From assembly GCA_009602735.1 (NCBI GenBank), contig WELA01003305.1, positions 137,752-201,751 on the forward strand: DNA of 64,000 bases, read 5' to 3'. A program made the translations under genes and the position numbers. Below the pieces are notes generated by a model, which was not told where the DNA came from, did no database searches, and worked only from the letters and a program-made list of their open reading frames with translations. This DNA comes from Mesotaenium endlicherianum. Lineage: Eukaryota. This document shows positions 7,978 to 64,000 of this stretch, in pieces (the stretch's first letter is position 1; every line of letters begins with the position of its first letter).

Positions 7978-8012
<35 letters not shown>

Positions 8013-22865: not shown

Positions 22866-22899
22866 GTGGTATCGGAGCAGTTATCACAGTCTTCTTTGT

Positions 22900-28758: not shown

Positions 28759-28870
28759 GGTGACAGGCTGAAAAGGCAGTCAGTTTGGGAGGCTGGTCAG
28801 GTTCAGTTCCTTTATTTAAGGCTTTGCAGTTTAATGTTGTCGAGGCGACAACAAGTTAAGTTGGAGGGAT

Positions 28871-40247: not shown

Positions 40248-40967
40248 TGTAATGAATCAGTATATTGGTCGATATAATATTCATTAAAATAATATAGTCA
40301 AATAAGTTCAGCCTGCTGAACTCTAGTTAACAATCAGTCTGCTGGACTTTATACTTAATATCAGTTTAATGACTTGGCCGGAAGTAGCAGGCTGAGGTCA
40401 CCTTAAGTCAGCTTGCTGACACATTCTTTGACAGCCAGCTGACTTCCGTACTCGGTAGCAGCGAACTGCCTCGATATGCATCTAAGTGTGGTATGCTAGA
40501 TGAATGGCCAGATGACATCCCTATGATGGATGGCGATTCGGGATGATGGGAGATGGCGGTGGATTTGGTTAACCGAGGTCCTACCAACGTGGTTAACTCC
40601 CGGGTAGGCGGTGCCATCGCACTGACCGTTGAACAGTAAACTCATTCCATGTACATATGCTAGGCATTGCTCTCGAGTTCGGCATTCGGAAACGAGGCCA
40701 ACTCTCTTGTACAGCTTACTGAGAGAGATCTGAATCCAAGGCGAGAAGCCATTGATACGCACTGTCTTCTAACCTTGCTTATGTATGAGTTTACTGATTT
40801 GCATCATTGATGCTAGTTTACTCGCATTTGACTTACGAGTATTATTCCCTGCTAGTGTATTGTCCTTTGCCGTTAAACCAGTTAACGGAAATACCATAAA
40901 GATTACTTGCTGATATAAAGATCTTTATTAATTGTTAATCGCCTATTTGGTAAGTCGATTCATTTCA
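40248..40967 (+). repeat. LTR A (5')
   Basis: TG...CA followed by PBS. Confidence 0.92.
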
Positions 40968-41001
40968 GTGGTATCAAAGCTGTTATCACGGTCTTCTTTG
41001 T

Positions 41002-42479: not shown

Positions 42480-43736
42480 TCCAGTCTACTGACTGTGAGG
42501 ATGCTAGAGATAGTGAGTCGTCACTAGCTGCCCTCGTAGCAGGTATTATGGGTCCTGCTGAACTGGATTCACTATGCATGCCTGACAAACAGATAAAGGA
42601 GACCATCAGTAATATAGACGTCCAGAGAGTGCACACTCTGGATGCTCTTGTTCCACCTGATGTCCAACATTTCTTTGCTACGTCAGGAGAACAATGCGAA
42701 AGTCAGGAAAAGACAGTCCCCCCTATCCTACTGCATTGCATGATTGCAGGTAGGAAGGTGAGGGCATTTGTTGACGGAGGGGCGTCACATACTTTTATCC
42801 ACAAGGACTTAGTTAAGCGGCTGAGGCTGCCTACTGTCACCCAAGGGAATAGGAAAATATTCCTTGGAGATGCCTCAAGTATCCCGGGAGGAGTTATAAC
42901 CAAGCCTATTGAGGTCCAGTTAGGTTCTGGCATTGCAGTTCTAACTGAAACGCTTACATTTGAGGTACTCAACACTGGCTTTTATGATCTCGTGCTAGGC
43001 AGGTCCTGGCTTAATAGACATCAAGCTGAAGTGTGTTGGAGCAGAGGTACAGTTAAAGTGAGAGGAGCCAGTGATGGGCAGACTGACTTGGCACCCACCA
43101 GTGCTCTTCCTCTTGTCCTGTGTGGATGGCAAATGAAGGAAAAGAAGAGGCTTCCAGAAGGATGCAAGTTGCTGAATGCAATGGAGTTCGTCAAAAGCTG
43201 GAACCAGAAGGAGGACAGAATGTTCTGTCTGCTGCTAAGAGAGGTACCTCCTCAACCTGAAGAAGTGGTTGAGAAAAAGGTAAGCCCTCCGAAGCACCCT
43301 ACTGCTGCAAAAATTGTTGCTCAGTACACTGATGTATTTAATATGCCTCCAGGACTACCCCCTAAAAGGGAAGTAGATCATAGGATTGCTCTATTACCTG
43401 GGAGTCAGCCACCTTGGCAACGCACTTATGGCTTGTCTTATGTGGAGAGCGAGGAGTTGAGAACACAGATTGCAGAGCTNNNNNNNNNNNNNNNNNNNNN
43501 NNNNNNNNNNNNNNNNNNNNNNNNNNNNNNNNNNNNNNNNNNNNNNNNNNNNNNNNNNNNNNNNNNNNNNNNNNNNNNNNNNNNNNNNNNNNNNNNNNNT
43601 GTGTGGATTGCAGAGCCCTGAACAGAATTACAGTAAAGAACAAGTATGCTTTACCCGGGATCGAGGACTTGCTTGATACCCTGTCTGGTGCTAAGGTGTT
43701 CAGTAAGATAGATCTCAAGAGTGGTTATCATCAAAT
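42455..43736 (+). CDS. pol: pol 5' part: aspartic protease and RT N-terminus (N gap 43480-43599)
   Basis: [61 protein letters not shown]; -1 frame relative to gag. Confidence 0.9.
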
Positions 43737-43737
43737 N

Positions 43738-45632
43738 GGATTTCCAGGAGTATAAGTACCAGAGATGTCCCTAGAGAGACATCTTTTTAGAAGTCCATTA
43801 TGCCAGATGTAAGTAACAGAGATTATCAGTAAAGCTTACACCTTTATCTCTTGTGTGTTTTCAGGACCACATAGTTACTCTCTTGTGAAGAGCAAGCCCT
43901 CCTGGCTTCTAGTCACTTGAAGAACTTCACAAGTGGTGAGCAAATCGACCCCGTGCGCACATCTGCGCACACGCCGGTCCGGCTGCCCCCTGCAGACCGT
44001 GTCACGCCGCAGGTGTCAGCAGGAGCCGCCACCTGTCACGCTTACGGCAGGCGAGGCAGCTCTCGCCAGCTGCCGCACGCTCGCGTCCGCACGCACGTCT
44101 CGTCACCCGCTGCGGTCCACGCTACGCAGCCGGCAATATGACAACGGCCTCGCAATCGCAGCAGCGCTCGCGCTCGGCAGCCGCTCACACGCGTCGCCAC
44201 TTGGCACGCGCACACGGCCCCGTACGGACCGCACAGATCAGGCCTGCGCAACCGCCACCCTCAGTCAGGGGGGGGCATTCCTGACTGCGTTGTGCGTCCG
44301 AATTCCTAGACGGGGCAAAGCCGGCACACGCACAGCCGCACACAGCCAAAGCCTAAACTCTGGTCGCACGCAAAACCCCAGCTGCAGCGCGCATCTCGCT
44401 GCCGGGGTCCCGCCGAACGCACGCGCCGAAGGGGGCGCGCCACGTACTTCATGCCAGGTAGGCAAGTCCGACGCCGGCACTCGCCAGACAAGACGCGCCA
44501 GAGCTGCCAGGAGTCCCCAAGGGGCGCCACCTGGCGGCCCCCTGACAGCGGCTGCAGCAGCGCACGTCTGCTGCGCGCACGTGCCGCCACTTGGCACGCA
44601 CGCGCAGCCCGTTCCAGCCAGCACGCATCTGGCGCAGACGGCCGGCACTACCAGCCAGGGACGGGCATCTTTGACTGCGCTGCACGGCCGGATTTCCGGT
44701 CTAAGCGCCGACGGAGCCCGCCAGACACCAGGCAGCCGGGGCCTAAACCTTGTCCGCACACAAAACCCCAGCGCCAGCGCTATCTGTGCTACCGGGGTTC
44801 TTGCGTGCGCGCGTATCAGGACAGTCGCACCGCGAGCGTCGCACGCAACAGCCGGGGAGGACGCTGCCACCGCATTAGCGACGCGGCGACGTCCCATCAG
44901 GAGCGTCTAGGGGGTGCCACTTGGCAGCCCCCTGGCAACCGCGCCAGCCACAACTGTGCCAGCAGCAGTTGTGCCAGCTGCAGCCGCACTGTCCGCAGCA
45001 GCAGCTGGGCCAGCAACGCCCGCGTCACCTGCGCCAGCAGCAGGTGCGCTTGCAGCGTGTGTGTCAGTTGCGACGGCAGCAGCCGCGCCAGCAGCAGCTA
45101 CGCCTGATGCAGGCGCGACGGCAGCAACCGTGCCAGCAACAGTTGCGCCAGCAGCAGCTGTGCCTGTTGCAGACGCACCGGCAGCAGTCGCACCAGTCGG
45201 AGCCACGTCAGCGGTGCCAGCAGCATCCACAGCAGCCCCTGATTTGGCTGCGCCAGCAGCGTCTGCTTCAGCTGCTCCAGCAGGGTCTGCAACAGCTCTA
45301 GCACCAGCGGCGCCAGCAGCCGCTGTGTCAGCTGCGGCCACTTCAGCCGCGACGGCAGCAGTCGCGCCAGCGCGAGCTGCGCCTGTTGCAGTCGTGCCGG
45401 CAGCAGTCACGTCAGCCGCAGCCACTTTCATCGTGCCCGCAGCAGCCACTCCAGCTGCCCCAGCGGCGTCAGCAGCTGTGCCAGCAGCGCCCGCGTCAGC
45501 TGCGCCAGCAGCAGTTGCGCGAGCAGCGTCGGTGACAGCTGCATTGGCAGCAGCTGCGCCAGCCTTGTCGTCAGCTCTCGCGGCGCTTGCGTTCGCAGCT
45601 GCGCTCGCCTCCGCCGCATCCGCACCAGGGCC
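43738..45632 (+). repeat. Exact duplicate of 53618-55512, bounded by single Ns (likely misplaced contig)
   Basis: Constant offset 9880, identical ORF translations, N at 43737 and 45633. Confidence 0.85.
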
Positions 45633-45633
45633 N

Positions 45634-46186
45634 AGACACCCTGTCGTAAGTCCAACGAAACTTGCACAAGGCCCAAGAAAACCAACAAAAATACGCTAAT
45701 CAACACCGTCGGGAACTGACATTTTCCAAGGAGGATTTAGTCAAACTGCATTCTCAGCACCTGTACCTCCCTGGTGTGGTCAAGAAAAAGCTTGGCCCTG
45801 TCTGGGTCGGTCCATATTCGGTGGTCCGTCGTGTCGGTCAGAATGCTTACAAACTGAACATGTCAGCTGAATACAAGGGGCACCCGGTCTTTAATGTCTC
45901 CTTCCTGGAACCGTACATCAAAGGTGATACACTGTTCACAGGTCGGTTCCCTGTCCAACCGGGACCGGTCCCCGCTGTCCGGGACGGCGACCCTGAGGAA
46001 TATGAGGTCGATGAGATTTTAGACGCTCGCTCGGTCCGTCGATCGTCTAAATATGTCATGAAATACCTCATTCGATGGAAGGGTTACGATGCCTCTGGGG
46101 ACACTTGGGAGTTTAAGGACCACTTGACCAATGCCAAAGGGGCGTTGACACGGTTCCACCTTCGGGCCGCTGGAGTCCCTCCATAA
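45634..46186 (+). CDS. pol: Integrase C-terminus with GPY motif and chromodomain
   Basis: WVGPY..HPVFNVSFL..EYEVDEILDAR..YLIRWKGYDASGDTWE*. Confidence 0.9.
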
Positions 46187-46429
46187 CTGTCATTTCAGTT
46201 GACACGGGAAGGTGACAGGCGGTCCTGTCTCCATTTAAGTTGGAGGGGAAAATATATGACAGTTAGTGAGCGAGAGCGATAAAAACACACTCATACGTTT
46301 ATGTGTAGCGCATCGCAACTACGTCAACTTTTAGCAATCATCCTGTAAGGTAAACAGCAGCGAAGCCACTATACTAAATACTAACATACTTCCTGCAATC
46401 CCTATGACAAAGGTCCATATCCTACTAAC

Positions 46430-48130
46430 TTGTGCCCTGGTTACATGTGCAGGATGGCGCCCACCACACAAAAGGAGGACAGAAAGCGCAAGGCAGAAGA
46501 AGCCAGGAGGACAATGGAGCAATACCAGAAGGAGCTGGCGGCGACGTCCCTCACCAGGAGAGAACAAGAAAGGGTCCGCAAACAACAAGAGGCGGCAGAA
46601 GAGGCACAGAGGAAGAAGGATCAGGAAGCGGAAAACCTCAGGAAGGCTGAGGAGGAGAGACAGAAGAAACAGCAAGAAGAAGCGGCAGCGGCAGAAGAGG
46701 AGAAAAGAAAAAAGATTGAAGCGGACAGACAGAAGAGCTTGGCCACTTACAGGTATACTGTGGTGGGTGGCCAAAACTTCGATAACCTGAAGGAAGCATT
46801 GCTGGCAGCCCAGGAGATCAACAGGCTGGAACAGACAACACTGCTACAGAAGGAAGGAGCTACAGCACTGGACAGGTACATCGAGACACACACCGGCGTG
46901 GTCCTTTACGAAGATTATGCTAAGATGGTGGGCTATACAGCAGAGCAGGCCCGGTATCTCGCAGATGATTCAGAGGACAAGCCGGTCCCCATACCGGGAA
47001 TAGTGGGAGATCAGAGACTCATCCGGATGGTGAGCATGCGGCCCGATAGCTTTAAGGATACGGTATTCTACCTCACACTCCTGCCAGCTTACAATGAAGT
47101 TGAGAGAAGGAGCTGGGAGTACTTGGCCAGGGAAGCAGGACAGCAGATGTTCTCTCCCCACTGGTTCCCGTGTAAACTGAGGAAGGCTGAGCACGGACCC
47201 CAGTACTACCAGCAGCCAACAGACTGGAGGTGGATGACCGTCACAAATAAGAAGCAGGAGTGTGACCGAGCCCAACCGGATGACTTCCACTATGGCCTAG
47301 ACGGCTATCTCATCCTACCACCTCACATTGCCCCTTGGGACCCCAGGCTGAATGGATGCCTGAGCAATATGAATGCAGAGACCAAGGAACATAGGAGGAG
47401 GGGAAGAGACTACTTCTCTAAGGGAAAGCATGCCTTTGTCAAATGGGCAAAGAATGCAGGCCGGATAGATATCAGTAGGCTGAAGGCCAAGCAACCTCCA
47501 GCGCGCCCTAAGAAAGGGAGGTCGGTAGACTACTCCATGTCTACTAGGGAGCAGGACGACTTAGTGGACGAGACCCCTACTCTCTCCGAGGAGGAGGATG
47601 AGGAGGATGAGGAAGAAGAACAAGGCAGAGGAGAAGCATCAGCAGCAGGTACTCAGGATACCCAGGGACAGGCAGTGGCACTTCCTAAAGAACCACGATC
47701 AGGTGTGTGGAATGTGATCCCCGTTATGGCGACAACTGGACCCCGCGCTCGCTCCCCCAGCCCACCTGCCCAAGCAGGGGAAGAAGCTGATCTGACTGTA
47801 CTGGGCAGCAGACACAGACAGAAATCCCCAGAGGACAGGGGTGCCAGAAGAGGGACACGCGGGTGGGCCAGAGGTATGCCAGCCTCCCCCTCCGCTCAGG
47901 GGCATGTACCTCTAGCCAATGTATTTCAGCATCCTACTGGAATGCCTGTCTATGTGGGAATCAACACCCAAATAGTTGAAGAGCAGGCCACCATCCTCCG
48001 TTCTCCTCGAGGGCCAACTTTAGAGCAAACAGGGTTCTTTAGAAGGCCAGCTGACAGACCTAGAGGGCTGTCCAGATCTAGGTCCAGATCTCCGTCCCCT
48101 GATCCTGAAGCCCCAGGAACCACCCCTTAA
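46430..48130 (+). CDS. Extra sense ORF (~560 aa) of unknown function between pol and the 3' LTR
   Basis: Uninterrupted ORF (first ATG 46445) with an E/K/R/Q coiled-coil N-terminus, a globular-looking middle, an acidic tract and an RS-rich tail; homologue in copy 1. Confidence 0.75.
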   Translation: MCPGYMCRMAPTTQKEDRKRKAEEARRTMEQYQKELAATSLTRREQERVRKQQEAAEEAQRKKDQEAENLRKAEEERQKKQQEEAAAAEEEKRKKIEADRQKSLATYRYTVVGGQNFDNLKEALLAAQEINRLEQTTLLQKEGATALDRYIETHTGVVLYEDYAKMVGYTAEQARYLADDSEDKPVPIPGIVGDQRLIRMVSMRPDSFKDTVFYLTLLPAYNEVERRSWEYLAREAGQQMFSPHWFPCKLRKAEHGPQYYQQPTDWRWMTVTNKKQECDRAQPDDFHYGLDGYLILPPHIAPWDPRLNGCLSNMNAETKEHRRRGRDYFSKGKHAFVKWAKNAGRIDISRLKAKQPPARPKKGRSVDYSMSTREQDDLVDETPTLSEEEDEEDEEEEQGRGEASAAGTQDTQGQAVALPKEPRSGVWNVIPVMATTGPRARSPSPPAQAGEEADLTVLGSRHRQKSPEDRGARRGTRGWARGMPASPSAQGHVPLANVFQHPTGMPVYVGINTQIVEEQATILRSPRGPTLEQTGFFRRPADRPRGLSRSRSRSPSPDPEAPGTTP

Positions 48131-48243
48131 GGTGACAGGCTGAAAAGATAGTCAGTAAGGGAGGCTGGTCAGGGTCAGTTTCTTTATTTAAAGCTTTTGC
48201 AGTTTAATGTTGTCGAGGCGACAACAAGTTAAGTTGGAGGGAT

Positions 48244-48962
48244 TGTAATGAATCAGTATATTAGTGGATATAATATTCATTTAAATATAATAGTTAATTA
48301 AGTTCAGCCTGCTGAACTTTAGTTAATAATCAGTCTGCTGGACTTTACATAATTATCAGTTTAATGACTCGGCCGAAAGCAGCAGGCTGAAGTCAACTTA
48401 AGTCAGCTTGCTGACACATTCTTTGACAGCCAGCTGACTTCCGTACTCGGTAGCAGCGAACTGCCTTGATATGCATCTAAGTGCGATATGCTAGATGAAT
48501 GGCCAGATGACATCCCTATGATGGATGGCTATTCGGGATGATGGGAGATGGCGGTGGATTTGGTTAACCGAGGTCCTACCAACGTGGTTAACTCCCGGGT
48601 AGGCGGTGCCATCGCACTGACCGTTGAACAGTAAACTCATTCCATGTACATATGCTAGGCATTGCTCTCGAGTTCGGCATTCGGAAACGAGGCCAACTCT
48701 CTTGTACAGCTTACTGAGAGAGATCTGAATCCAAGGCGAGAAGCCATTGATACGCATTGTCTTCTAACCTTGCTTATGTATGAGTTTACTGATTTGCATC
48801 ATTGATGCTAGTTTACTCGCATTTGACTTACGAGTATTATTCCCTGCTAGTGTATTGTCCTTTGCCGTTAAACCAGTTAACGGAGATACCATAAAGATTA
48901 CTTGCTGATATGAAGATCTTTATTAATTGTTAATCGCCTATTTGGTAAGTCGATTCATTTCA
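48244..48962 (+). repeat. LTR A (3')
   Basis: TG...CA, preceded by PPT. Confidence 0.92.
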
Positions 48963-49507
48963 TATACCTACCTCTATTATATTCTACCACATTAATGAAT
49001 ATACCTCACCAACACTCTAAGCAGCTTGACATACAACGTCAGATTCAGAGAAAATCGCCCTTCAGGCTTTCGCTTAACTTTCACAAAGTCACAGCTTACA
49101 AAACTCTGAAACTACACCTCTATGCTGGCCTGGGTCAAGCTCTTCACTTAACACCGCGCCTTAACAGCTCTTCACTGCCAGGCTAAGCTCATTCAGTTCT
49201 TCACTGAGAGCTTTATCTGCCAATACTACTCTCTCTCTTCGAGATGCGAATGCGACTTCTGAGAACTTGGAAACTAACACACAACTCACCATTTTAAGGC
49301 TGCTTCACCCACACTTGTGGCGTTCGGCCGAATCTGTGCTAATCTCCTAGCAGATTCTATTCTGCAGTTCTCCTACTTTCAACAGTGAGATTCCCTCTTG
49401 GGAACTCTTACAATCCTAACTTATCTCTGATACACTGAGAAGAATCTTCAGCGTCGGCAGAAGCGTGGGGCCTCGGCTCTCCAATGACCTTGGGAACTCC
49501 TTCTTCN

Positions 49508-50226
49508 GACGGCCGGCACTACCAGCCAGGGACGGGCATCTTTGACTGCGCTGCACGGCCGGATTTCCGGTCTAAGCGCCGACGGAGCCCGCCAGACACC
49601 AGGCAGCCGGGGCCTAAACCTTGTCCGCACACAAAACCCCAGCGCCAGCGCTATCTGTGCTACCGGGGTTCTTGCGTGCGCGCGTATCAGGACAGTCGCA
49701 CCGCGAGCGTCGCACGCAACAGCCGGGGAGGACGCTGCCACCGCATTAGCGACGCGGCGACGTCCCATCAGGAGCGTCTAGGGGGTGCCACTTGGCAGCC
49801 CCCTGGCAACCGCGCCAGCCACAACTGTGCCAGCAGCAGTTGTGCCAGCTGCAGCCGCACTGTCCGCAGCAGCAGCTGGGCCAGCAACGCCCGCGTCACC
49901 TGCGCCAGCAGCAGGTGCGCTTGCAGCGTGTGTGTCAGTTGCGACGGCAGCAGCCGCGCCAGCAGCAGCTACGCCTGATGCAGGCGCGACGGCAGCAACC
50001 GTGCCAGCAACAGTTGCGCCAGCAGCAGCTGTGCCTGTTGCAGACGCACCGGCAGCAGTCGCACCAGTCGGAGCCACGTCAGCGGTGCCAGCAGCATCCA
50101 CAGCAGCCCCTGATTTGGCTGCGCCAGCAGCGTCTGCTTCAGCTGCTCCAGCAGGGTCTGCAACAGCTCTAGCACCAGCGGCGCCAGCAGCCGCTGTGTC
50201 AGCTGCGGCCACTTCAGCCGCGACGG
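49508..50226 (+). repeat. Exact duplicate of 54517-55235, bounded by single Ns (likely misplaced contig)
   Basis: Offset 5009; N at 49507 and 50227. Confidence 0.85.
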
Positions 50227-50643: not shown

Positions 50644-52963
50644 CTATTGTTTTCCAGTCCTGCGGCTAGGGGGTTTAGGAAGGCAGTCAGGACATTCCCA
50701 TCGTCCTGCCATAATCTCTTTCTCGCCAATGCAGAAAGTGTGCCAACGGGTACCACACTTATCGCAAGTTACCATTGCTTCCTAATCATCCAGCACTTTG
50801 CAGCTGGCATAAGGCGTGGCTGGCACCAATTCCTCGGGCACAACCCTAATCGTAGGATCAATATTCGGCAAATGGCATAGCGAGCAATTCTGACGTGGTC
50901 TTTCATGGTTTTACCATCAGAACCTTCCAGTTCTAACACACCATTGTGAAACGCATGTTTCACAAGTAAGATCACTGCACCCGAATTGGTGTCGATGGTG
51001 GTCTTGGTTTGGCGCTTGCGGTAGACGAAGTCTTCTTATTGAATCTGCGTCATCTGCAGGCGGTAGCTCCCGTCTCGCGTCCTGGCGTAACGCTGCGTAT
51101 CTCTTTTCTGCGAGATCGCAGCTCCAGCGGTAGCCTAGGCCCATGATTGGCAAAGGTTGCAAGTGTGGATGTTGCTATGTAAAACCAGCCTTGACGCGAT
51201 CACAGCTTTGACAGGCCTTGATCACATCTTCACACTGCTGCTTCCTGCCCCTCCACCAGTAAAACAACTCCAAAAGACTATACGTCTTCTTGACACCATA
51301 GTGTCCAGTGTTCTCGTGCATTTCTTGCACAAGAGCTCTTCTTCCGATGGGTTCTGGCACTAACTTCTCCGGACCAGTTTCTTCAATTTTGAAGAGGTTG
51401 TTGCATTTCCAGCAAAACCTTTTAGCTCGATGGCTTACCTGGTCCTTCTCCTTCACTGATAGCCCTTCCAAGTGAGTTCCCGTCTTAAGCCAGTGCATAG
51501 TAGCTTGATCTTTCCAGATCTCTGGACTGAACAGGGGTAGAGGCTCAGCTTCACCTGATGCTACCATTCCAGCCATTTCGGCTAGGCAGGCCACCAACTC
51601 TGCTGGGCTGCTCGGGTCTTCGTCCTCTCGAGCTCCTGTTCTGTCGTCTGAAGATGGGTCTGGGTTCCTGCTGAGTCCATCGGCGTCGTTGTTGAGCACT
51701 CCTGCTCTGTGCACTACCGTCATTTGGTACTCTTGCAGCTTAAAAGCCCAGCGAGCCAACTTACCATTGAGGTCTCCATTCTTCATCAGCCATAGTAACG
51801 GTGAGTGATCCGTGATCAGCGTGAAGGGTCTTCCCCACAGATTCTCTCTGAAGTGTGTGACAACCCAAACCACTGCCAGCAGCTCTCCTTTGTAGGACGA
51901 GTAGTTGCTCTCCGCTCGATTGTCAAAGCGTGAGGCATAGGCAATGACATACTCCTCTCTAGGGCTTGCGGCCTGAGTGAGTACTGCGCCAATTTCCACA
52001 CGACTCCAGTTAGTGTGCAGATTGAACGGCTTGGAGTAGTCAGGCATTTGCAAGACTGGGGCTGTTACCAGCTGCTCCTTAAGCTCGTTCATGGCTTTCT
52101 CCTGAGCTTCTGTCCACACTAAAGGCACATCCTTTTTCAGGAGTTCCGTCAGAGGTTTAGCAATTCTGCTACAATCCTTCACAAACTTACAATAGTATCT
52201 GCTTAGCCCTAACAGAGCTTTCAGCTTAGACACATTCGCCGGTGCAGGTATCTTGTAATGAGCCTCAGTCTTCACAGCCTGAGGGGACATAGCATTGTTC
52301 CCAATCTCATGTCCTAGGTAAGGCACGTGTGCCTCAAAGAATCTGCACTTTCCAGGATGCAGCTTCATCTGGAATTTCTCCAGGCGCTGGAACACTTGTT
52401 CCAAGTGCTCGAGGTGCTCCTCTATGGACTTGCTGAATACTACCACATCGTCAATGTAAGGCTTAGCAAAATCCAGCCCCTCCAGCACTTTATCCATAGT
52501 CCTCTGAAATATGGCTTGGGCATTTTTCAGCCCAAATGGCATTACTGTCCATTGCCAAAGTTCCCTTCGAGCCCAGAAGGCGGTCTTACCTCGATCTTCT
52601 GTTTTCACAAGGATTTGGTTGAAGCCTTGGTGCAGATCGATGATGCTAAACACCTTCCCGGTGGTGACATTCGCAAAGATCCGCTCCGGCGTAGGCATCA
52701 CATAGCTGTCTGGCTCCGTGTAGAGATTCAGTCGCCTGTAATCTCCACACATACGAGTGGCAATATAATTGCCGACCTCGTCTTTTTTAGCGACTACTAC
52801 TGCGGAAGCCCCATGCAGTGAGGTTGATTTTCAATCATGCGGAGCTTATGCAGCTCTTTGCAAGTTTTCTCCACACAGTCCCACTCTGTCTGACTGAGCT
52901 TATGCGGCCCAATTCTGACTGGGTTATCAGTAGTGAGTGTGATCTCACACACACTGGCAGTAG
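50644..52963 (-). pseudogene. pol: Gypsy pol fragment: RT - RNase H - integrase HHCC (core deleted) - PHD finger
   Basis: ORF 51175-52752 (MCGDYRRLN, MPFGLKNA, YIDD, HENTGH..CQSC); then GVLELEG..NCSLCHLP and CDKCGTRWHTFC..WECPDC, with stop at 50644-50646. Confidence 0.9.
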
Positions 52964-53824
52964 TGTCATGATTTATTGAGTCGAGGTTGTCGCACAAAAC
53001 CGAGCTCCACACGTGTGAACCATCAATCTAGGAAGGCCGACTTTGCATAGACTTTACGCATCTATATGTTGACCTTTTCTCAATTTCCAAGTCACCAAAG
53101 TGTAGCGCGTCGAGTCACCTTCCGAATGGCACCGGGTTCGCGTCATTTGGTCAAGTATCGAGCGAGATATGAGCGATCTAGTCCGCGTCACCTACAGGCC
53201 CCTAGCGGATCCTCACCAATTTGTGTTTCAATGTGCCCAAGGGACACATTCTTGCCTATTCGTGACCCCTAAAACCCCCAGCTTGTGCGCACAAATCCGC
53301 GAGCTCCTAGAGCACACATACCTTGCATTTCCATACTATAAGTGCATCATTGAGGCTATAACTAGGTGACTGCATCAACTACGCCTAGAGGAAGCTTCCT
53401 CAAGTTTCAGATCTTCGTTTGAGGTGCTATCTAGGTAGAATCACCCAAGGTAAGCTCCACCAATGAGAGACACATAGCATATTCTACATGCCTTGCTTTG
53501 ATTGGATTGAGTTATGCTTAGCCTATAGGAGTGCTAGTACATGCCTTGTACACATTAGTGGACATAGGAGAGCCTCCTAGAGGGACTAGATGCATTGGAC
53601 TCGCCGCAGACCCCGGCGGATTTCCAGGAGTATAAGTACCAGAGATGTCCCTAGAGAGACATCTTTTTAGAAGTCCATTATGCCAGATGTAAGTAACAGA
53701 GATTATCAGTAAAGCTTACACCTTTATCTCTTGTGTGTTTTCAGGACCACATAGTTACTCTCTTGTGAAGAGCAAGCCCTCCTGGCTTCTAGTCACTTGA
53801 AGAACTTCACAAGTGGTGAGCAAA
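52964..53824 (+). repeat. LTR C, 3'-truncated (~860 of ~1290 bp)
   Basis: Starts TGTCATGATTTATTGAG; highly similar to 63166-64000; leaves family C homology after GTGGTGAGCAAA. Confidence 0.85.
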
Positions 53825-55995
53825 TCGACCCCGTGCGCACATCTGCGCACACGCCGGTCCGGCTGCCCCCTGCAGACCGTGTCACGCCGCAGGTGTCAGC
53901 AGGAGCCGCCACCTGTCACGCTTACGGCAGGCGAGGCAGCTCTCGCCAGCTGCCGCACGCTCGCGTCCGCACGCACGTCTCGTCACCCGCTGCGGTCCAC
54001 GCTACGCAGCCGGCAATATGACAACGGCCTCGCAATCGCAGCAGCGCTCGCGCTCGGCAGCCGCTCACACGCGTCGCCACTTGGCACGCGCACACGGCCC
54101 CGTACGGACCGCACAGATCAGGCCTGCGCAACCGCCACCCTCAGTCAGGGGGGGGCATTCCTGACTGCGTTGTGCGTCCGAATTCCTAGACGGGGCAAAG
54201 CCGGCACACGCACAGCCGCACACAGCCAAAGCCTAAACTCTGGTCGCACGCAAAACCCCAGCTGCAGCGCGCATCTCGCTGCCGGGGTCCCGCCGAACGC
54301 ACGCGCCGAAGGGGGCGCGCCACGTACTTCATGCCAGGTAGGCAAGTCCGACGCCGGCACTCGCCAGACAAGACGCGCCAGAGCTGCCAGGAGTCCCCAA
54401 GGGGCGCCACCTGGCGGCCCCCTGACAGCGGCTGCAGCAGCGCACGTCTGCTGCGCGCACGTGCCGCCACTTGGCACGCACGCGCAGCCCGTTCCAGCCA
54501 GCACGCATCTGGCGCAGACGGCCGGCACTACCAGCCAGGGACGGGCATCTTTGACTGCGCTGCACGGCCGGATTTCCGGTCTAAGCGCCGACGGAGCCCG
54601 CCAGACACCAGGCAGCCGGGGCCTAAACCTTGTCCGCACACAAAACCCCAGCGCCAGCGCTATCTGTGCTACCGGGGTTCTTGCGTGCGCGCGTATCAGG
54701 ACAGTCGCACCGCGAGCGTCGCACGCAACAGCCGGGGAGGACGCTGCCACCGCATTAGCGACGCGGCGACGTCCCATCAGGAGCGTCTAGGGGGTGCCAC
54801 TTGGCAGCCCCCTGGCAACCGCGCCAGCCACAACTGTGCCAGCAGCAGTTGTGCCAGCTGCAGCCGCACTGTCCGCAGCAGCAGCTGGGCCAGCAACGCC
54901 CGCGTCACCTGCGCCAGCAGCAGGTGCGCTTGCAGCGTGTGTGTCAGTTGCGACGGCAGCAGCCGCGCCAGCAGCAGCTACGCCTGATGCAGGCGCGACG
55001 GCAGCAACCGTGCCAGCAACAGTTGCGCCAGCAGCAGCTGTGCCTGTTGCAGACGCACCGGCAGCAGTCGCACCAGTCGGAGCCACGTCAGCGGTGCCAG
55101 CAGCATCCACAGCAGCCCCTGATTTGGCTGCGCCAGCAGCGTCTGCTTCAGCTGCTCCAGCAGGGTCTGCAACAGCTCTAGCACCAGCGGCGCCAGCAGC
55201 CGCTGTGTCAGCTGCGGCCACTTCAGCCGCGACGGCAGCAGTCGCGCCAGCGCGAGCTGCGCCTGTTGCAGTCGTGCCGGCAGCAGTCACGTCAGCCGCA
55301 GCCACTTTCATCGTGCCCGCAGCAGCCACTCCAGCTGCCCCAGCGGCGTCAGCAGCTGTGCCAGCAGCGCCCGCGTCAGCTGCGCCAGCAGCAGTTGCGC
55401 GAGCAGCGTCGGTGACAGCTGCATTGGCAGCAGCTGCGCCAGCCTTGTCGTCAGCTCTCGCGGCGCTTGCGTTCGCAGCTGCGCTCGCCTCCGCCGCATC
55501 CGCACCAGGGCCAGCAGCAGCGCCCGCATGGTCAGCGGCAGCGGCTGCGTCGGTCCCTGCGGTCATGAAGACGGCCATGCTGGCCTACTGTGCCCGCACG
55601 CTGCCCCTTGGCAGCCGCACAACCATCAGCAGCGCAGGCCGCGAGCACACGCTCGTGGCAGCCGCGGGGCGAACCACGGTGGCACAGAAACGCGCCGGAT
55701 CGGATCAGGGTCGCCGCACGGAGGAGGCGCCGCGCGTGCCCCAATCTTTTTGCGTGCTGGAGACGCCTACAGCGCCAGTGGCGACCGCGCCGCACGCGCT
55801 TGCATCACCAATGGTCACGGTGCAGCTCAGCGCCGAGGTCATCTCGTTGGCATACATCGCATGCCGGCGGTGTCCTTCGCCGAGCTTGGCGTGTCCATGG
55901 AGGCTACGCGGCAGGCAGCCCAGCTGCTGCTCTAGTCTCGCAGTGCCGCTTCCCGCGCCTCCAACGGCAGGCCGTCTTCCGACGCCTTAGTCGCA

Positions 55996-56433
55996 ATGCG
56001 AGCCGCACCTGCGCAACCTGCGCATGAGCGCAGGATGATCAGCACCCCTAACGTCGCGTTTTTGGATAATTTGCAGGGGATCGTGCTGGTCAACACTCAG
56101 GCCCCGCAGCGCATCATGTTCGACACTGGAGCGCAGCCGGTCCTCATCAGCCTCCGCTACTTCCGCCAGCTGGGGCTATCTTCAGCCAACTTGGAAGACT
56201 CGCCCACGCGCATCAACATCGCGGCCGGCACTTCCAAGTCCGTCACCGGGCCCACGCGACTGGCACTGCTCTTCACGCTTCGCCCAGGCACGCCGGATGA
56301 GACAACCATCCACCGGCATGCGTTGGTCACCCCATCGAAGACCTTCGACGTTCTTTTGGGACAGGACGTTCTCTTTCCCATCGGTGCCGCAGTCGACAAC
56401 TGGGCAGAGCGAGTCTTCTATCGGCCCGACTAG
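55996..56433 (+). pseudogene. Retropepsin aspartic protease domain
   Basis: IMFDTGA (DTG at 56122-56130) and VLLGQD; the TAG at 56431 aligns with W in the copy at 29583-30551. Confidence 0.85.
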
Positions 56434-58509
56434 CGATCAGGAGGGACCCGCACGGCGTTCCTGCCACTCGACATTGTCGACCGGCGCCCCGCAGTGACCG
56501 CCCTCTATGGCTTCATGGCCCTTGACGACGACCGGCCAGTGGTTCAAACCGATAAGGGAGAACCCGAAGAGGATGATGTTTCCGTGGGCGTCGATCTGCT
56601 TGAGCCACAAGACGAGGAGCCCAACCTACCCATGGCAAAGCTGCACCCTACGCCCCACGAGCAGGCCGCGTATTTGACCGCTCAGGCCAAGGAGCAGGTG
56701 CGCATCGCCGCGGCACATACAGCCATGGTGAGGCAGATGGCCGCCGATGCCGCTCAAGCCCACACACTTGCAGCTGCCGCTGTCAGTATGGCCGCACGCG
56801 CCCACGAAGCAGCCTCGGCCGCCGCAGCCGTATATCGACCTCAGCAGGCTGCCTCTAGCGGTCCCTCAGCCCGTTTCGACATCCGGGTGCGCCACGACGT
56901 GCCTGTGGGTGTCCGCTTGGAGTACCGCATGGCCTCTTGGTCTCCGTCCCCTGCACCATCACACCGCACAGGCGACTCTTGGCCTCGCACTACAGCATCA
57001 AAAGAGGAGGCCATGCGACAAGCCGCTTACCCTGGCAGGTCCGACGATGAGTCCTTGGAGAGCATCGAGGAGGACGAGGAAGACCTCTGGGAGGAGCTGC
57101 CTCCAGAGTTTTCCAAGGAGCCCACGCCGCCGCCTTCAGGGGAGCCCCCACCTCCTACTCCAACAGCTCGCGCGCGGCGCAAGCCTACGGGCCCGCCAGG
57201 CTTCAGCGATCTTTCACATGAGGCCGCAGCAGAGTCTGGCAAGACTCCCCGAGGCGCAGCCGGTCCTAGCCGACCGCAGCAGCACGACTGCTCCACTGGC
57301 AACAAGTGCCGCACCACGCACTTGTTTGCCTCCGCTAGAGCTGCCCGCGCTGCCTCCAGCTCCGCAAAGACGCACCCCTCAGCGTTCGCGTCTCCGCACG
57401 CAGCTCCGCTACGGCCCACACCCCTACGCAGCAGCATCCTCGGGCCCCCGCGGACAGGCCCGTCCCCTTACGCAGGTCCGCCGCTACGGCACGCCCACCG
57501 CACGTGGCCTACCAACACGCACGCCCAGGGTACCTCTCCGCGCAGGCAGCCCAGGGGCTCCTGCAAGATAACACCGCTTCAGGAGGCGCGGCATACCCAA
57601 AAGCTCACTCCGCTGCGCACCGCGCGGGAGATCACTCCCCTCCGCGAGACGAGGGCTCGCTCCGTAACCCCGCCATACGACGCGACTCGTAAGCGCGGCA
57701 CCACGCCGCCCTACCGCGCGCAACTCGACGACGGCGACACGCATTCTTCCTTAATGCACACCCATGGCGCGTTGTACCAGGTCCCTCTTGCCCGCCGCAC
57801 TTCGGTCCCGCGCAGTCACATCGCAGGAGATGGACCGAGCGGTCTGCCTTCGCAGAAGGCACCTGGCATCGGCAGCCAATCCTCCGACCGTCACGCGTCT
57901 ACGACAGCCGCTCGCAAAGAGCTCATGCGCCGACAGCAGCTCGGCCGCATCTACCTCGCCCCTTGCGCACGGCCTGCAACACATGTCCAGCTGGCACCAC
58001 GGCAGCCAGTGCGCGCACGGCAGGTGGCAGACAGCCCCGAACACTCGGCCTGCACTATTCCTATGCAGTCAGTATTGCGCGAGCGCCAGCGCGAGTACTT
58101 CGACCCGCACCTGTTCATGCCGCCGCAGCGCATCGTCATGGACCAGCTAGCCCATGCTGCCTCGCACCGCGACAGCCAGCACGAGCGAGACCGATGGCAG
58201 CTGCTGTGCGTCCGTGCTGTACAGGCTCAGGTCCTGCCTGTTCCTTGCGAGGCCCTGCAGGACGCACGAGCCCGCTGGCGTACCTATCAGGCGCACGCTC
58301 GCAACGGGAGTCCGCAGCCCCTCGCAGACCGCATTCCCGGGCTCACCCTTGACTATGCCAGGCAGGCCGTGGCCTTGCTCCGCATGGCGCCGCATTAGCA
58401 CAGCCCACAGCGTACCTATCCGCCACCAGCCGAGCCCGGGGACGCCGCCATGGGCTGCAGCATGCTGCCCACGCCGATCTTCACCAATCAGCTCGACAAG
58501 AAGCCTGGT

Positions 58510-59460
58510 GGTATCGTCTTAGTGGAGCTCTTTGCTGGCATCGCGACAGGCCTGCTGGCCACCTTGCAGGCCGGCATTGCCGTGCGCCGCTACGTCTATG
58601 TGGATCCCAACGCAGAGGCCCAGTAGGTGGCTCGGCGCCAGATGGCCCTGTGTCACGAGCGCTTCCCTGACCTCTTCCCTGCGCACGCTTTCCGCCGTGC
58701 ACAAACGGACTGGCCCATGGACATCCGCGACATCACTACAGAGCACGTCACGCGTCTAGGGCCCATCGACCTGGTCATCGCAGGCTGGGAGTGTCAGGGT
58801 TTCTCCAGGGCAGGGACCGGTGGCGCCCTTGCGGACCCCCGCACTGCGCTCTTTTGGCACCTGCTCCGCGTCCTCAACATGATTGAGGATCGCCAGCCTC
58901 CCCACACTCTCGCATGGGTGTTGGAGAACGTGGCCGCGCGCTTCAATCGACGCGCGCACGTCCGTGTCGACTTTGCCCTCTGCAGCAGCTACGTCGGTCG
59001 CGAGGCCGTCATCGACGCTGCCCAGATCAGCTCCTTCGCGCACCGCGTCCGCGCATACTTCACCAACCTGGCCATGCCAGGCACACTCGAGGCTCTAGCT
59101 GCAGCCCACCCACGCCACACGCGCAACGTGGACTCTATTTTGGACGGCCCTGGCCTCGCACAGCGCGTGACGACTATGCCTCACCCCTCCATGGCGCAGT
59201 GTGAGGTACTCCATAACGTCACGAGGGCTCTCCCCACCTTCGTCAGCCGCTTCGACAGCGACGCCTACGTGGGGGCCGCGCGCGGCATGGTCATTGACCT
59301 CGAGACAGGCATGTTTGACCGCCCTCGCCCTACGGAGATGGAGCGTGCCATGGGCTTCCCGCCGCATTTGACCCAGGTGGATGGCATCACCAAAGTCAAC
59401 CGCATTCGTCTCCTCGGCCAGGCCATTGATGCCAACGTCCTCACATGGATCCTGCTACAG
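58510..59460 (+). pseudogene. C5 DNA cytosine methyltransferase domain embedded in pol
   Basis: Motif I LVELFAGIATG (58519), III DIRDI, IV LVIAGWECQGFSRAG (Cys 58792), VI WVLENV (E 58924), VIII AHRVRAYFTN (H 59041), IX EMERAMGFP, X RLLGQAIDANV; one in-frame TAG at 58624. Confidence 0.92.
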
Positions 59461-59482
59461 ACGCAGGCCTTGACGCCCCTCT

Positions 59483-62400
59483 ATGCCGAGGCACAACACC
59501 CCGAGATGGAGCAGTCTTACACCCAGATGGATCGAGACTCTGACACGGACGACGGTCGCCCACCTCTCGGCACGGCCAGGCATTCTCAGCGCGAAGGTCC
59601 TGGGCCCCCGGCGCCCTTCCGTCCTCGCTCGCCGCCCGCACATGTTTCAGACGCCAATTTTTGGTTCGCTGGGGGGGGGCAGGAGGCGAGAAGAGTGCTC
59701 ACAGCAACCCAGGGAGTTCCGGTCGCCATTTCTTTTTCCTCGCTTACGTTCTCAAGCAGGTGTGCCAGGGCAGCTTGCGGCAGCTGCCAAGGAGGCAGCA
59801 CCTACGACAAGACGCGCGCAGACAGCTGCAGGGCAGGTGACGCCGGCAGCACCACAGTTCACGCCAGCAGCAGGGCAGGAGGCGCAAACTGCGAGGCAGG
59901 AGTCTCCACCAGCTGCCCCTACATGGAAGCTGCGGGGGACTCTCACCGAGGCCCAGGCCGCACAACTGACGGCACTGCTAGATGAGAGACGCAGTGTCAG
60001 CTTTGCCAGCAGCATGCACGACCTTGGACGCTACAAGGGGGACCCCATGCGGATTCCTCTCACGGCACAGGAGCCTATCTTTCTCAAGCGTTATCGCTAC
60101 AGTCACTTTGAGGATGGCCTGATTGGCACGCAGACGGGCAAGTTGGAGGACAGCAAGCTCATCAGGGAGTTGTCCTTGGGCTACGCTGTGCCCACAGTGA
60201 TGCCAGCCAAGAAGGACGCCTCGGGTAACTGGTCCAAAAAGAGGATGTGCGGTGACTATCGTCGGCTGAACGAGGTCATCGAGCAGGACAGATATCCCAT
60301 GCCAACACCCAATGAGATCTTCGATGACATTGGCACCTGCACTTGGTTCTCAGTGTTGGACCTGCGCCAGGGTTTCAACCAGATTCCCATCGTCAAGGAG
60401 GATCAGCATAAGACGGCGTTCTGGGGAGCACAGCGTCTCTACGAGTGGGTAGTGATGCCCTTTGGGTTGAAGAACGCGCCTGCCACCTTTCAGAGGGTCA
60501 TGGACAAGGAGCTGGCCGGTTTGCCCTTTGCACGGTGTTACATCGATGACGTGCTCGTCTACGGTGAGACGTTTGAGGAGCACGTGGCTCACGTCACTGC
60601 TGTGTTGGAGCGCTTGGAGAACGCAGGGCTCAAGTGCCATCCTGGCAAGTGTACCTTTGGGACCCGAGAGGTGGAGTACCTCGGACACGTGCTCTCTTTG
60701 AGTGGCTTGGCTCTCCAGCTAGCCAAGATCACGGGCATTCCGCCACCCATTGATCTCTCACAGCTGCGCGCCTTCCTTGGCATTGCCAACTACTACCGGC
60801 GCTTCGTGCCCGGCTTCAGCAAGTTGGCCAAGCCGCTCAACGACTTGCTGAGGAAGGGCGTCGCCTACGTGTGGGGGCCTGAGCAGCAAGCGGCGTTTGA
60901 CAAGCTCAAGGAGCTCTTGGTGAGCGCTCCTGTGCTGCGATGGCCTGACTATGGGAAGCCCTTCATCCTGCACACCAACTGGTCGCAGGCAGGCCTTGGG
61001 GCAGTGTTGGTACAGGAGCACAACGGCTTTGAGCATGTGGTGGCCTACGCCAGCCGCAGCAACAACCGCGCGGAGGGCAACTACGACTCCTATGAGGGGG
61101 AGTGCTTGGCGGCAGTCTGGGCCATCGTCCACGTCAGGCACTACCTTTACGACACCCAATTCCGCTTGGTCACTGACCATCAGCCGCTCAAGTGGCTCAT
61201 GACGTCGGAGCGCTTGACCGGCAAGTACGCGCGGTGGGCCCTCATCCTGCAAGAGTACACTTTTGACGTGCACCATCGCCCGGGTTCGACCAACATGGAC
61301 TCCGACGGCCTCAGCCGCAACCCCCTGCCCTCCTCGAGGGACCTCTTAGTGGCTCAACATGACGAGGATGAGCCAGTGGCCTGGCACGCGGCGGCGTACC
61401 TCGCCTTCACCGTCGACGGCTACGTGCGGCCCGCGGGGCTCACTAACCTCGACATGGTGACGGTTACCACTCGGCGACTCGCTCTGACTGCAGCAGAGGA
61501 GCAGGATACCTCGCAGCGCGGGCCCAAGGATGTGTGGGACAACGCCCCCGTCCTTCATTACGTCACCACCAAGGAGGTGGCACTTGGTGTCACCTCAAGG
61601 GAGCGCGACCGCATCCTCAAGCGCAGCCGCGACTTCGTCTTCATAGACGGGCGCATGCGACGAGTGATGGCTGACGGCTCCGTCCTTGTGGTGCCTGAGC
61701 CAGCCATACGCAGCCAGCTGGTGCGCCGTGTGCACGAGGCATTGGGGCACTTTGGTGTCAGGCGCACCCTCAGCCTTCTTCAGGCTGAGTACTGGTGGCA
61801 CGCCATGACTAAGGTCGTGGCCGATGCCGTCAGCAGCTGCTCGCTCTGCGACCGCGTGCGCTCGAGCTTCACCGCTCGCACAGTCGCTTTCAGCCCTCTC
61901 CCAATTCAGGGGCTGTTCTACAAGTGGTCGCTCAACTTGGCGGGGGAGCTGCCCAAGTCTCGCCGAGGCAACCTCTATGTCTTGGTGATGATTGAGCACA
62001 TGTCCAAGTGGATCGAGCTTGTGCCTTTGCCCAGCAAGGCCAGTGAGGGGATCGCTCAGGCCTTCCTTGATCAGGTCCTTAGCCGCTTCGGTGGCTGCGC
62101 AGAAGTGCTGACCGACCAGGGCAAGGAGTTCCAGGGCTGCTTCCAGACGCTACTGGAGCGCTCTATGATCGACCACCGCACCACCTCCCGCGATCACCCA
62201 CAGGCTGACGGCCTTGCAGAGCGCATGGTGCAGACCGTCAAGCTTGGGTTGTGGAAGTACTGTCTTGCCCACGACAGCACCCACTGGGACGACGCACTCC
62301 CGTGGCTGGCCATGGGGTACAGGTTCAGAGAGCAGGCCTCATTGGCCTCGCATTCTCCCTACTTCCTCCTCTACGGCCGCCAGCCAGTCCTACCCGCAGC

Positions 62401-62980
62401 AGCCAGGATCGTGGCCAAGAACGTCGTGGACTTGGACAGTCCCGAGACGTGGAGCGCTCTTATCGGGCAGCGTGCTCAGCTCTTTCAGCGCCTGATGCCC
62501 ATGGCCATGGATAAGCTCGGCATTGCACAGCATCGCAATACGCTAAGGTATGCCATGACTCGTGGAGGAGCCTATCGTCCTCGGGTGTTGCAATTTTCCG
62601 CAGGTGACTTTGTGTACCTGCGACGCCAGACGAAGAACACCCTCGACACCAGCAGCTCGCCAGTCGTCCTGCGCGTCAAGCGCGTCTTACCCACAGGTGT
62701 GCTGGAGCTGGAAGGCGCAAATGGCCGTCTTCACAAGGACCACACGAAGAACTGTGTGGACCATGCCATCTTCCAAACCTTGACTCGCAGGTCCGTCCCC
62801 ACAACGCGCGGCCGCCCAAGGACTGGGCGTGCCAGATCTGCCACAGCCCTGGCCAGGAGGCCAATATGCTGCTCTGCGACAGCTGCAACCTCGGCTTCCA
62901 CATCAGCTGCCTCGACCCTCCGCTGGCCCGCGTGCCCGCAGGAGACTGGTTTTGCTATGGCTGCTCTGAGTTGGCCTTAG
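59483..62980 (+). CDS. pol: pol: reverse transcriptase - RNase H - integrase
   Basis: RMCGDYRRLN, LDLRQGF, MPFGLKNAPATFQ, YIDD (60539), LHTNWS, VTDHQPL, HEALGH..CSLC, LTDQGKEF, HPQADGLAER. Confidence 0.95.
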   Translation: MPRHNTPRWSSLTPRWIETLTRTTVAHLSARPGILSAKVLGPRRPSVLARRPHMFQTPIFGSLGGGRRREECSQQPREFRSPFLFPRLRSQAGVPGQLAAAAKEAAPTTRRAQTAAGQVTPAAPQFTPAAGQEAQTARQESPPAAPTWKLRGTLTEAQAAQLTALLDERRSVSFASSMHDLGRYKGDPMRIPLTAQEPIFLKRYRYSHFEDGLIGTQTGKLEDSKLIRELSLGYAVPTVMPAKKDASGNWSKKRMCGDYRRLNEVIEQDRYPMPTPNEIFDDIGTCTWFSVLDLRQGFNQIPIVKEDQHKTAFWGAQRLYEWVVMPFGLKNAPATFQRVMDKELAGLPFARCYIDDVLVYGETFEEHVAHVTAVLERLENAGLKCHPGKCTFGTREVEYLGHVLSLSGLALQLAKITGIPPPIDLSQLRAFLGIANYYRRFVPGFSKLAKPLNDLLRKGVAYVWGPEQQAAFDKLKELLVSAPVLRWPDYGKPFILHTNWSQAGLGAVLVQEHNGFEHVVAYASRSNNRAEGNYDSYEGECLAAVWAIVHVRHYLYDTQFRLVTDHQPLKWLMTSERLTGKYARWALILQEYTFDVHHRPGSTNMDSDGLSRNPLPSSRDLLVAQHDEDEPVAWHAAAYLAFTVDGYVRPAGLTNLDMVTVTTRRLALTAAEEQDTSQRGPKDVWDNAPVLHYVTTKEVALGVTSRERDRILKRSRDFVFIDGRMRRVMADGSVLVVPEPAIRSQLVRRVHEALGHFGVRRTLSLLQAEYWWHAMTKVVADAVSSCSLCDRVRSSFTARTVAFSPLPIQGLFYKWSLNLAGELPKSRRGNLYVLVMIEHMSKWIELVPLPSKASEGIAQAFLDQVLSRFGGCAEVLTDQGKEFQGCFQTLLERSMIDHRTTSRDHPQADGLAERMVQTVKLGLWKYCLAHDSTHWDDALPWLAMGYRFREQASLASHSPYFLLYGRQPVLPAAARIVAKNVVDLDSPETWSALIGQRAQLFQRLMPMAMDKLGIAQHRNTLRYAMTRGGAYRPRVLQFSAGDFVYLRRQTKNTLDTSSSPVVLRVKRVLPTGVLELEGANGRLHKDHTKNCVDHAIFQTLTRRSVPTTRGRPRTGRARSATALARRPICCSATAATSASTSAASTLRWPACPQETGFAMAALSWP
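62830..62964 (+). other. PHD finger at the integrase C-terminus (frameshifted near 62760; stop 63010-63012)
   Basis: CQICHSPGQEANMLLCDSCNLGFHISCLDPPLARVPAGDWFCYGC, a complete C4HC3 pattern. Confidence 0.92.
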
Positions 62981-63165
62981 GCAGCAATCACAGCTCATCA
63001 GCTAGAGGCTGAGAGCTGGGGGGGGAATTAAAACATTTGACGCTTGACTCCCTTTTTGGCCTATAAAGCCATTTGTATTATAGACTTCATTGCAGCAAAG
63101 CCTGCTTGTCCATTGTGTGTTGCTTATGTCGACAATGCGCGCCCGATCTCTTAACGCACGACAGC

Positions 63166-64000
63166 TGTCATGATTTATTGAGTCGAGGTTGTCGCACAAA
63201 GCCGAGCTCCACATGTGTGAACCATCAACCTAGGAAGGCCGACTTTGCATAGACTTTACGCATCCATACGTTGACCTTTTCTCAATTTCCAAGTCATTAA
63301 AGTGTACGCGTCGAGTCACCTTCCGAATGGCACCGGGTTCGCGTCATTTGGTCAAGTATCGAGCGAGATATGAGCGATCTAGTCCGCGTCACCTATCGGC
63401 CCCTAGCGGATCCTCACCAAAGGGCAATTTGTGTTTCAATGTGCCCAAGGGACACATTCTTGCCTATTCGTGACCCCCTAAAACCCCCAGCTTGTGCGCA
63501 CAAATCCGCGAGCTCCTAGAGCACACATACCTTGCATTTCCATAGTATAAGTGCATCATTGAGGCTATAACTAGGTGACTGCATCAACTACGCCTAGAGG
63601 AAGCTTCCTCAAATTTTCGATCTTCGTTTGAGGTGCTATCTAGGTAGAATCACCCAAGGTAAGCTCCACCAATGAGAGACACATAGCATATTCTACATGC
63701 CTTGCTTTGATTGGATTGAGTTATGCTTAGCCTATAGGAGTGCTAGTACATGCCTTGTACACATTAGTGGACATAGAGAGCCTCCTAGAGGGACTAGATG
63801 CATTGGACTCGCCGCAGACCCCGGCGGATTTCCAGGAGTATAAGTACCAGAGATGTCCCTAGAGAGACATCTTTTTAGAAGTCCATTATGCCAGATGTAA
63901 GTAACAGAGATTATCAGTAAAGCTTACACCTTTATCTCTAGTGTGTTTTCAGGACCTCTTAGTTACTCTCTTGTGAAGAGCAAGCCCTCCTGGCTTCCAG
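63166..64000 (+). repeat. LTR C, runs off the window end
   Basis: Direct repeat of 52964-53792 with scattered transitions and small indels. Confidence 0.9.

Follow-up and report, generated by a model that had tools for sequence, protein, structure and literature searches.

A dead Gypsy retrotransposon of Mesotaenium endlicherianum that carries a DNMT3-type methyltransferase between its protease and reverse transcriptase domains

The closest known element to the one described here is KnitGypsy-Dnmt3 of Klebsormidium nitens (de Mendoza et al., 2018, PMC5890265), a kind named Gypsy-DNMT3 of streptophytes in a preprint (bioRxiv 10.64898/2026.05.21.726589). KnitGypsy-Dnmt3 carries a Dnmt3-type DNA methyltransferase (DNMT) domain in a Gypsy Pol, in the order protease (PR), DNMT, reverse transcriptase (RT), RNase H (RH) and integrase (INT) (GAQ92009.1), with purifying selection on the DNMT, and the legend of Figure 4 of the same paper states a DIRS-like repeat layout. 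Its available main text mentions neither target duplications nor a junction sequence, and contains no analysis of primer sites, no recoding and no members from land plants; a literature search outside subscription papers and Repbase gave nothing further on Gypsy-Dnmt3, its junction, recoding or land-plant members. The same domain order is found in a 64,000-nt stretch of the Mesotaenium endlicherianum genome (the window; assembly GCA_009602735.1, contig WELA01003305.1, positions 137,752 to 201,751), in an element that begins at 52964 and continues beyond the window end.

The window element is 44% identical to that of K. nitens over RT-INT and 38% over the DNMT, and the two agree in RT lineage and DNMT position. 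Its family combines a DNMT of DNMT3 fold, present throughout, with split repeats, TG...CA ends and 4-bp target duplications. The window copy itself is dead, because it has stops, frame shifts and Asp to Asn changes in RH and INT. We consider it likely that it is a Ty3/Gypsy copy of the KnitGypsy-Dnmt3 lineage, with the DNMT3-type enzyme lying between PR and RT and acting on new cDNA in active copies. An earlier note on this DNA had placed the element in the DNMT-carrying Gypsy kind of de Mendoza et al. (2018), in agreement with GAQ92009.1; its suggestion that the order PR-DNMT-RT-RH-INT-PHD may be undescribed falls with that same protein, which has PR-DNMT-RT-RH-INT in one open reading frame (ORF). 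The fusion is already known, and the window copy by itself contributes one more host only. Unlike KnitGypsy-Dnmt3, the window family has another host, a linker of ~690 aa, an Ala-rich ORF1 without recognisable Gag, and a conserved stop before the protease.

Other described elements share single traits with this family. PAT-like and Ngaro elements, including SymbioDIRS-Dnmt3, have the same A1-coding-B1-A2-B2 layout, with an internal end-to-end junction thought to rebuild the ends (PMC4157794, PMC7192593, PMC5890265), whereas the window family ends in TG...CA, has 4-bp duplications and carries a DDE integrase where those elements use a tyrosine recombinase. The EpiLTRs of Euglena and Cymbomonas are likewise Gypsy-like and join a DNMT to a chromatin reader, although their DNMT is sister to DNMT4 and is found with Dam and a chromodomain, in contrast to DNMT3 and a PHD finger here (bioRxiv 10.64898/2026.05.21.726589). 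A PHD finger in a Gypsy polyprotein is also seen in Chlamydomonas Gypsy-7a_cRei, for which the available domain description names no DNMT (PMC9940879). Assignment to Troyka was rejected, as those elements are described with CG...CG termini and a 3-bp duplication and from animals only (PMC12440569), against TG...CA and 4 bp here. The order PR-RT-RH-INT with a DDE integrase is that of Ty3/Gypsy elements, and the family profile matches Ty3 Gag-Pol best; the ordinary paired long terminal repeats (LTRs) of that group are replaced by split repeats, and inspection of three units by eye showed no tRNA primer site behind the left repeat. Among the window ORFs scanned there was no match to the tyrosine recombinase family, and the integrating enzyme is the DDE integrase.

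Coding region and methyltransferase domain

The coding features of the element, and a second copy of the family in the window, are as follows (dN/dS, ratio of non-synonymous to synonymous substitution rates; E, expect value).

53825-55932, plus strand: ORF1 region, Ala/Pro-rich, in place of Gag; dN/dS 0.29 and 0.03 against the second copy
55933-55935, plus strand: in-frame TAG, common to the 75% identical second copy, likely the ORF1/pol boundary
56086-56430, plus strand: aspartic protease, DTG kept (PF13975, E 1e-6; PF13650)
56434-58509, plus strand: low-complexity linker, ~690 aa, containing TAG 58396
58510-59460, plus strand: DNMT3-type C5 cytosine methyltransferase (PF00145), TAG 58624 inside
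59474-59795, plus strand: zone of +1 frame change between DNMT and RT
60029-61273, plus strand: reverse transcriptase (YIDD kept) and RNase H (PF00078, PF17917, PF17919)
61694-62755, plus strand: DDE integrase and C-terminal part (PF17921, PF00665)
62830-63012, plus strand: PHD finger of C4HC3 type at the tail of the integrase, then the stop (PF00628, E 1e-12)
29592-30970, minus strand: second copy, truncated, with the end of ORF1, protease and linker start; 75.5% identical

Protease, linker and DNMT share one frame (that of 55936), broken by TAGs at 56431, 58396 and 58624 and then open to TAG 59983, just as the earlier note had read them. A hidden Markov model search in this frame bears out its DNMT assignment (PF00145, E 5e-9), and the motifs that it listed stand in order, with I at 58525, IV at 58780, VI at 58921, VIII at 59038, IX at 59335 and X at 59410. 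The best sequence matches in the PDB are DNMT3A, 3C and 3B (E 4e-16 to 2e-9), with DNMT2 and DRM at about 1e-6, and the predicted model, in which the stop is read as X, has a mean confidence (pLDDT) of 85.5 and finds DNMT3A by Foldseek (template-modelling scores 0.70/0.82). By sequence and predicted structure, the domain in the Pol region is unpermuted and of DNMT3 type. Motif IV reads AGWECQ, keeping the catalytic Cys with Glu in place of the usual Pro, a replacement shared by 6 of 30 aligned relatives; most sequences in the 31-member alignment retain the catalytic Cys, ENV and RxR. The earlier note had proposed a dN/dS check, and its outcome, for relatives only, is purifying selection on the DNMT: four of five pairs of relatives give 0.10-0.18, and one decayed pair gives 0.49 (0.47 for its RT).

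Downstream of the DNMT, RT, RH and INT follow in the shifted frame (59474-62980), which upholds the frameshift described in the earlier note; a second shift near 62753, before the PHD finger, had been overlooked, and the PHD finger is back in the frame of the DNMT. Compared with relatives, the first catalytic Asp of RH and the first Asp of INT are both Asn in the window copy. Not all of these lesions are shared by other copies: the break near 62753 is not carried by 11 contigs of run X1, 10 contigs of run X2 and 10 of 21 reads of run X6, and none of the contigs that cover TAG 58396 in three runs of one sample (5, 7 and 7 contigs) shares this stop. The nearest structures to the PHD finger are those of KMT2D/C, KAT6A, PHF12, CHD4, BAZ2 and PHF21A. 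Several of these fingers read unmethylated H3K4, and a likely role of the PHD finger on the integrase is to guide insertion.

At the 5' side, the second copy on the minus strand allows selection to be followed upstream of the protease, and weaker likeness in that copy continues to about 32400. The earlier note had begun the coding region at 55996 and given the element as 55996..63012; both limits have to be moved, as the second copy lacks the ATG at 55997, coding sequence under selection reaches upstream over TAG 55933, and the real span runs from 52964 past the window end. On the two sides of TAG 55933, in the same frame, dN/dS against the second copy is 0.03 (26 codons) and 0.38 (50 codons); it is 0.09 in the protease and 0.18 in the linker (174 codons). 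On this sequence evidence, TAG 55933 is likely a programmed ORF1/pol boundary, and a splice acceptor at this boundary is possible. ORF1 would end at TAG 55933, and the PR-DNMT-RT-RH-INT-PHD product would be made by readthrough or splicing. TAG 56431, directly after the protease, is absent from the second copy. The linker, ~110-170 aa in relatives versus ~690 aa in the window copy, matched no relative protein. A purpose-built profile gave weak matches near the end of ORF1 only, where there is a weak likeness to the post-Gag spacer of relatives, and the pairwise match of ORF1 to one relative was not significant (E 0.09), while relatives have a Gag-like ORF start (zf-CCHC in P0006).

Split repeats and the internal junction

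The repeats and associated features are as follows.

52964-53824, plus strand: repeat A1, left end, starting TGTCATG; 96.8% identical to 63166-64000
62991-63025, plus strand: predicted hairpin and then a G8 run, polypurine-tract-like, directly before B1; fold z -4.4
63026-63163, plus strand: repeat B1, ending CACGACA; 82.6% identical to 20987-20851
63157-63172, plus strand: internal junction CACGACA-GC-TGTCATG, end to end; same or near-same in L005, L008, L013 and L031
63166-64000, plus strand: repeat A2, truncated at the end of the window; x and B2 expected beyond
20851-21997, minus strand: solo unit A-x-B (A, 140 nt, B) with TG...CA ends and the 4-bp duplication CACT on both sides

Family contigs and RNA reads depart A1 at 53824 into segment x, and the departure from A into this 140-nt segment is seen in 17 contigs and in 10 and 22 RNA reads. 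Related loci were taken from metagenomes, of which 36 of 53 were analysed, with L037-L053 (17 of 53) dropped as short or weak. Among them, L031 has the full A-coding-B-A-B arrangement with AAGG duplicated, and L023 has CACA duplicated; a reading of L023 as A-coding-B was dropped, as it ends in A2-B2. TG...CA termini and a 4-bp duplication are thus found in all three units that could be checked (the window solo, L031 and L023). In the eight units with a visible B1 end, five have a junction of the form CAYGACA-G(C/T)-TGTCAYG, two pass into flank (L016 and L017) and one ends with its contig, and the arrangement of B, 2 nt and A is conserved out to bryophyte-like relatives. Two further candidates were rejected: the junction pattern also matched one stretch of DNMT coding sequence in a single family (21 loci), which is not a junction, and a second palindromic junction at A2/B2 of L031 was dropped because the spacer is longer in L023.

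A G-run precedes B1 in all of the at least seven units listed, and none precedes B2 in the solo, L031 or L023. Inspection by eye, with no comparison to a tRNA set, found no TGG primer site behind A1 in the window, L005 or L031, and Rfam and tRNA scans gave nothing over the curated cut-offs. At the position of a primer site, directly 3' of A1, there is a strong hairpin (53833-53850; fold z -3.2 for 53825-53880). A conserved non-coding motif of ~25 nt (GATGGGGC...GCACCC.GCC) lies between the PHD stop and the G-run in L005, L008, L013 and L031, but not in the window copy; the motif is possibly a stem-loop or an internal primer site. Of the 26 molecules in one RNA run, 16 have their end at 63499, which hints at a transcript start about 334 nt into A.

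These features suggest a replication cycle in which the RNA would run from inside A1 into B2 and the plus strand would begin at the G-run before B1. By analogy with the proposal for DIRS, the internal B-GC-A junction may serve as template for rebuilding both ends, and the integrase would then open or trim the rebuilt junction and insert with a 4-bp stagger. It is doubtful that the A-B-A-B layout is instead a relic, with the short forms (A-x-B solos and A-coding-B) produced by repeat recombination only and an integrase that never uses the internal junction. Recombination of A1 with A2 or of B1 with B2 yields exactly those forms with the target duplication retained, and L016 and L017, two of the eight units with a visible B1 end, pass directly into flank, as a relic layout would allow. 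However, the junction and its 2-nt spacer are conserved between elements with ~50-55% RT identity and 38-40% DNMT identity, and no TGG site was seen behind A1 in the three units inspected, which also speaks against a relic.

Relatives and the stop between methyltransferase and reverse transcriptase

The earlier note had left room for a one-off insertion of the DNMT; the same order stands at many independent loci and proteins. From 7994 candidates, a DNMT query retrieved 19 long proteins with identities of 30-44%, the named ones from the liverwort Calypogeia fissa and from Closterium, and an RT-RH-INT query retrieved 1305 proteins at E 1e-100 or better, including those of K. nitens, Coleochaete, Closterium, Calypogeia and Riccia. 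A viral collection was set aside, as its 29 loci had only short, weak DNMT matches of bacterial or phage type. An RT tree was rooted on a chromodomain element after four proteins had fallen out, three of which had been meant as outgroup. It places the window copy among elements of K. nitens, Closterium, Coleochaete and Calypogeia, and apart from a clade with the order RH-DNMT-INT. The node uniting all these elements has a support of 0.988, while the separating nodes are weak (0.6 and below); inner nodes are weak in both the DNMT and RT trees.

In P0015, P0107, P0110 and P0130, the DNMT lies between RH and INT, and these form an RT clade of their own with Tetrabaena (support 1.0). A related DNMT3-like domain directly before the integrase, and between RH and INT in those that show both, is seen in P0015, P0016, P0019, P0049, P0107, P0110, P0130 and P0149. 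This second position is either a relocation or a second capture. As separate observations, P0145, beside the DNMT3 lineage in the RT tree, is a neighbouring Gypsy with a PHD finger and PF05869 (Dam) by precomputed annotation, and P0185 (CAA9586175.1), an RT-INT-PHD ORF of the family labelled as uncultured cyanobacterium, is probably plant DNA in a metagenome bin.

The DNMT and RT are joined differently across these elements. All 24 relative loci with the DNMT and the RT start in view have an in-frame stop 159-183 nt upstream of RT, although many are near-identical copies and amount to about five distinct subfamilies. The stop is followed by CAR in 23 of the 24, and by the exact UAG-CAR-YYA, the readthrough motif of tobamoviruses (PMC3542737), in L003, L008, L012 and L013. 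In L013, Gag-PR-DNMT-RT-RH-INT-PHD lies in one frame with this one stop only. The earlier note had made its reading depend on a consensus with the DNMT in frame with pol; in L013 the two are in one frame apart from this stop, and in the window copy there is a frame change. The context of TAG 55933 differs from CAR-YYA. The site of the frame change in the window copy is given as 59550-59595 by a codon model and as after 59697 by likeness to relatives, two readings that disagree.

The shift between DNMT and RT in the window copy is probably decay. Some weight, though less, can be given to a programmed shift, by which the DNMT would be made in large excess over RT and INT, as a particle component at structural level. 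The stops of the relatives, with L013 as the clearest case, favour recoding at this place, and three runs of one sample listed no majority indel in 59474-59985 at a 55% threshold, a threshold that also hid an indel at 55852 listed in another read-out. However, a conserved stop already stands before the protease in the window family, and with a second recoding step little RT would be made; moreover, DNMT and RT lie in one called ORF in K. nitens, Closterium and several further relatives. An excess of DNMT through recoding appears to apply to the bryophyte-like relatives.

Tentatively, these observations can be drawn together as an ancient green-plant lineage of Gypsy-Dnmt3 elements, from algae to liverworts, without a tRNA primer and ordinary LTRs, in which the ends may be rebuilt in a DIRS-like manner, the DDE integrase may open the junction, and the dose of DNMT3 may be tuned by a readthrough stop that moved from before the protease (window family) to behind the DNMT (bryophyte-like relatives, with the enzyme at Gag level). 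In this comparison the lineage has been kept under selection from algae to a liverwort, whereas the 2018 paper has Dnmt3 acquired in the K. nitens lineage (PMC5890265). The combination of a DDE integrase with split repeats, and the lack of a visible tRNA primer site, points to a replication route between those of LTR elements and DIRS. The use of a circle junction by integrase is a long-standing open question. In addition, the position of the readthrough stop would predict the amount of methyltransferase per particle, which bears on the role of the enzyme.

Function, state of the copy and neighbourhood

As the DNMT lies in Pol, and as Dnmt3 domains of Symbiodinium retrotransposons methylate CG in yeast (PMC5890265), the enzyme would be made together with Pol and, by analogy, likely methylates new cDNA in the particle. 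It is unlikely that the domain is instead a module for DNA binding or chromatin, or that its substrate is host DNA, either in trans or at the site of insertion. Such roles would suit the Glu in motif IV and two of the points below, the CpG content and the yeast assay; the catalytic Cys, ENV and RxR kept in most aligned sequences, and the purifying selection on the DNMT, speak against them.

Several observations weigh against the overall reading of the element and its cycle. CpG is not depleted in it (the observed/expected ratio is 0.96-0.99 for PR-linker and DNMT, whereas two Gypsy elements nearby, which differ from it in GC content, have ratios of 0.57 and 0.42), and there is no sign of long-term CG self-methylation. 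The Dnmt3 domain of K. nitens was negative in yeast, a result called inconclusive by its authors, and in the available text of that paper activity is shown for no Gypsy-type Dnmt3 (PMC5890265). No capsid or zinc knuckle was detected by Pfam in the three frames of the ORF1 region, the Gag of four relatives gave no tblastn match to the window, and neither window copy has a recognisable Gag. For the main copy, B2 and the target duplication lie outside the window; the hairpin before the G-run beats shuffled sequences in two of five units only; and the short forms fit the junction-opening model and plain recombination equally well. In the 6-24% of each run that was read, RNA depth over the DNMT was zero in X6 and in X12, and did not exceed 0.71 in X9. 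Finally, no contig spans the element, and 43738-45632 and 49508-50226 are 100% identical duplicates of its 5' region with single Ns on each flank, probably gap-filling artefacts of the assembly; with such duplicates and no spanning contig, the window copy could be a mosaic.

These assembly features would also fit a one-off capture, a nested DNMT insertion in the window copy or an assembly chimera. Such an origin is very improbable and largely refuted by the relatives, given the same order in many independent loci and proteins and the high depth of contigs that the host's own runs give over the DNMT. The thousands of contigs on this stretch show that the family is large. The insertion is fairly recent, as an alignment of A1 with A2 has 17 mismatches over 837 columns.

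The element is inserted in the RT gene of another Gypsy (50889-52963, minus strand) of the same RT lineage, with 55% RT identity, whose 5' part falls outside the window. Two copies of another LTR family, with a Ty3 capsid Gag and protease, lie at 22144-29593 and 40247-48965, and one of them truncates the second copy of the DNMT family. Further upstream, a host protein kinase gene (PF00069) with introns rich in simple repeats occupies 7000-11300 on the minus strand.

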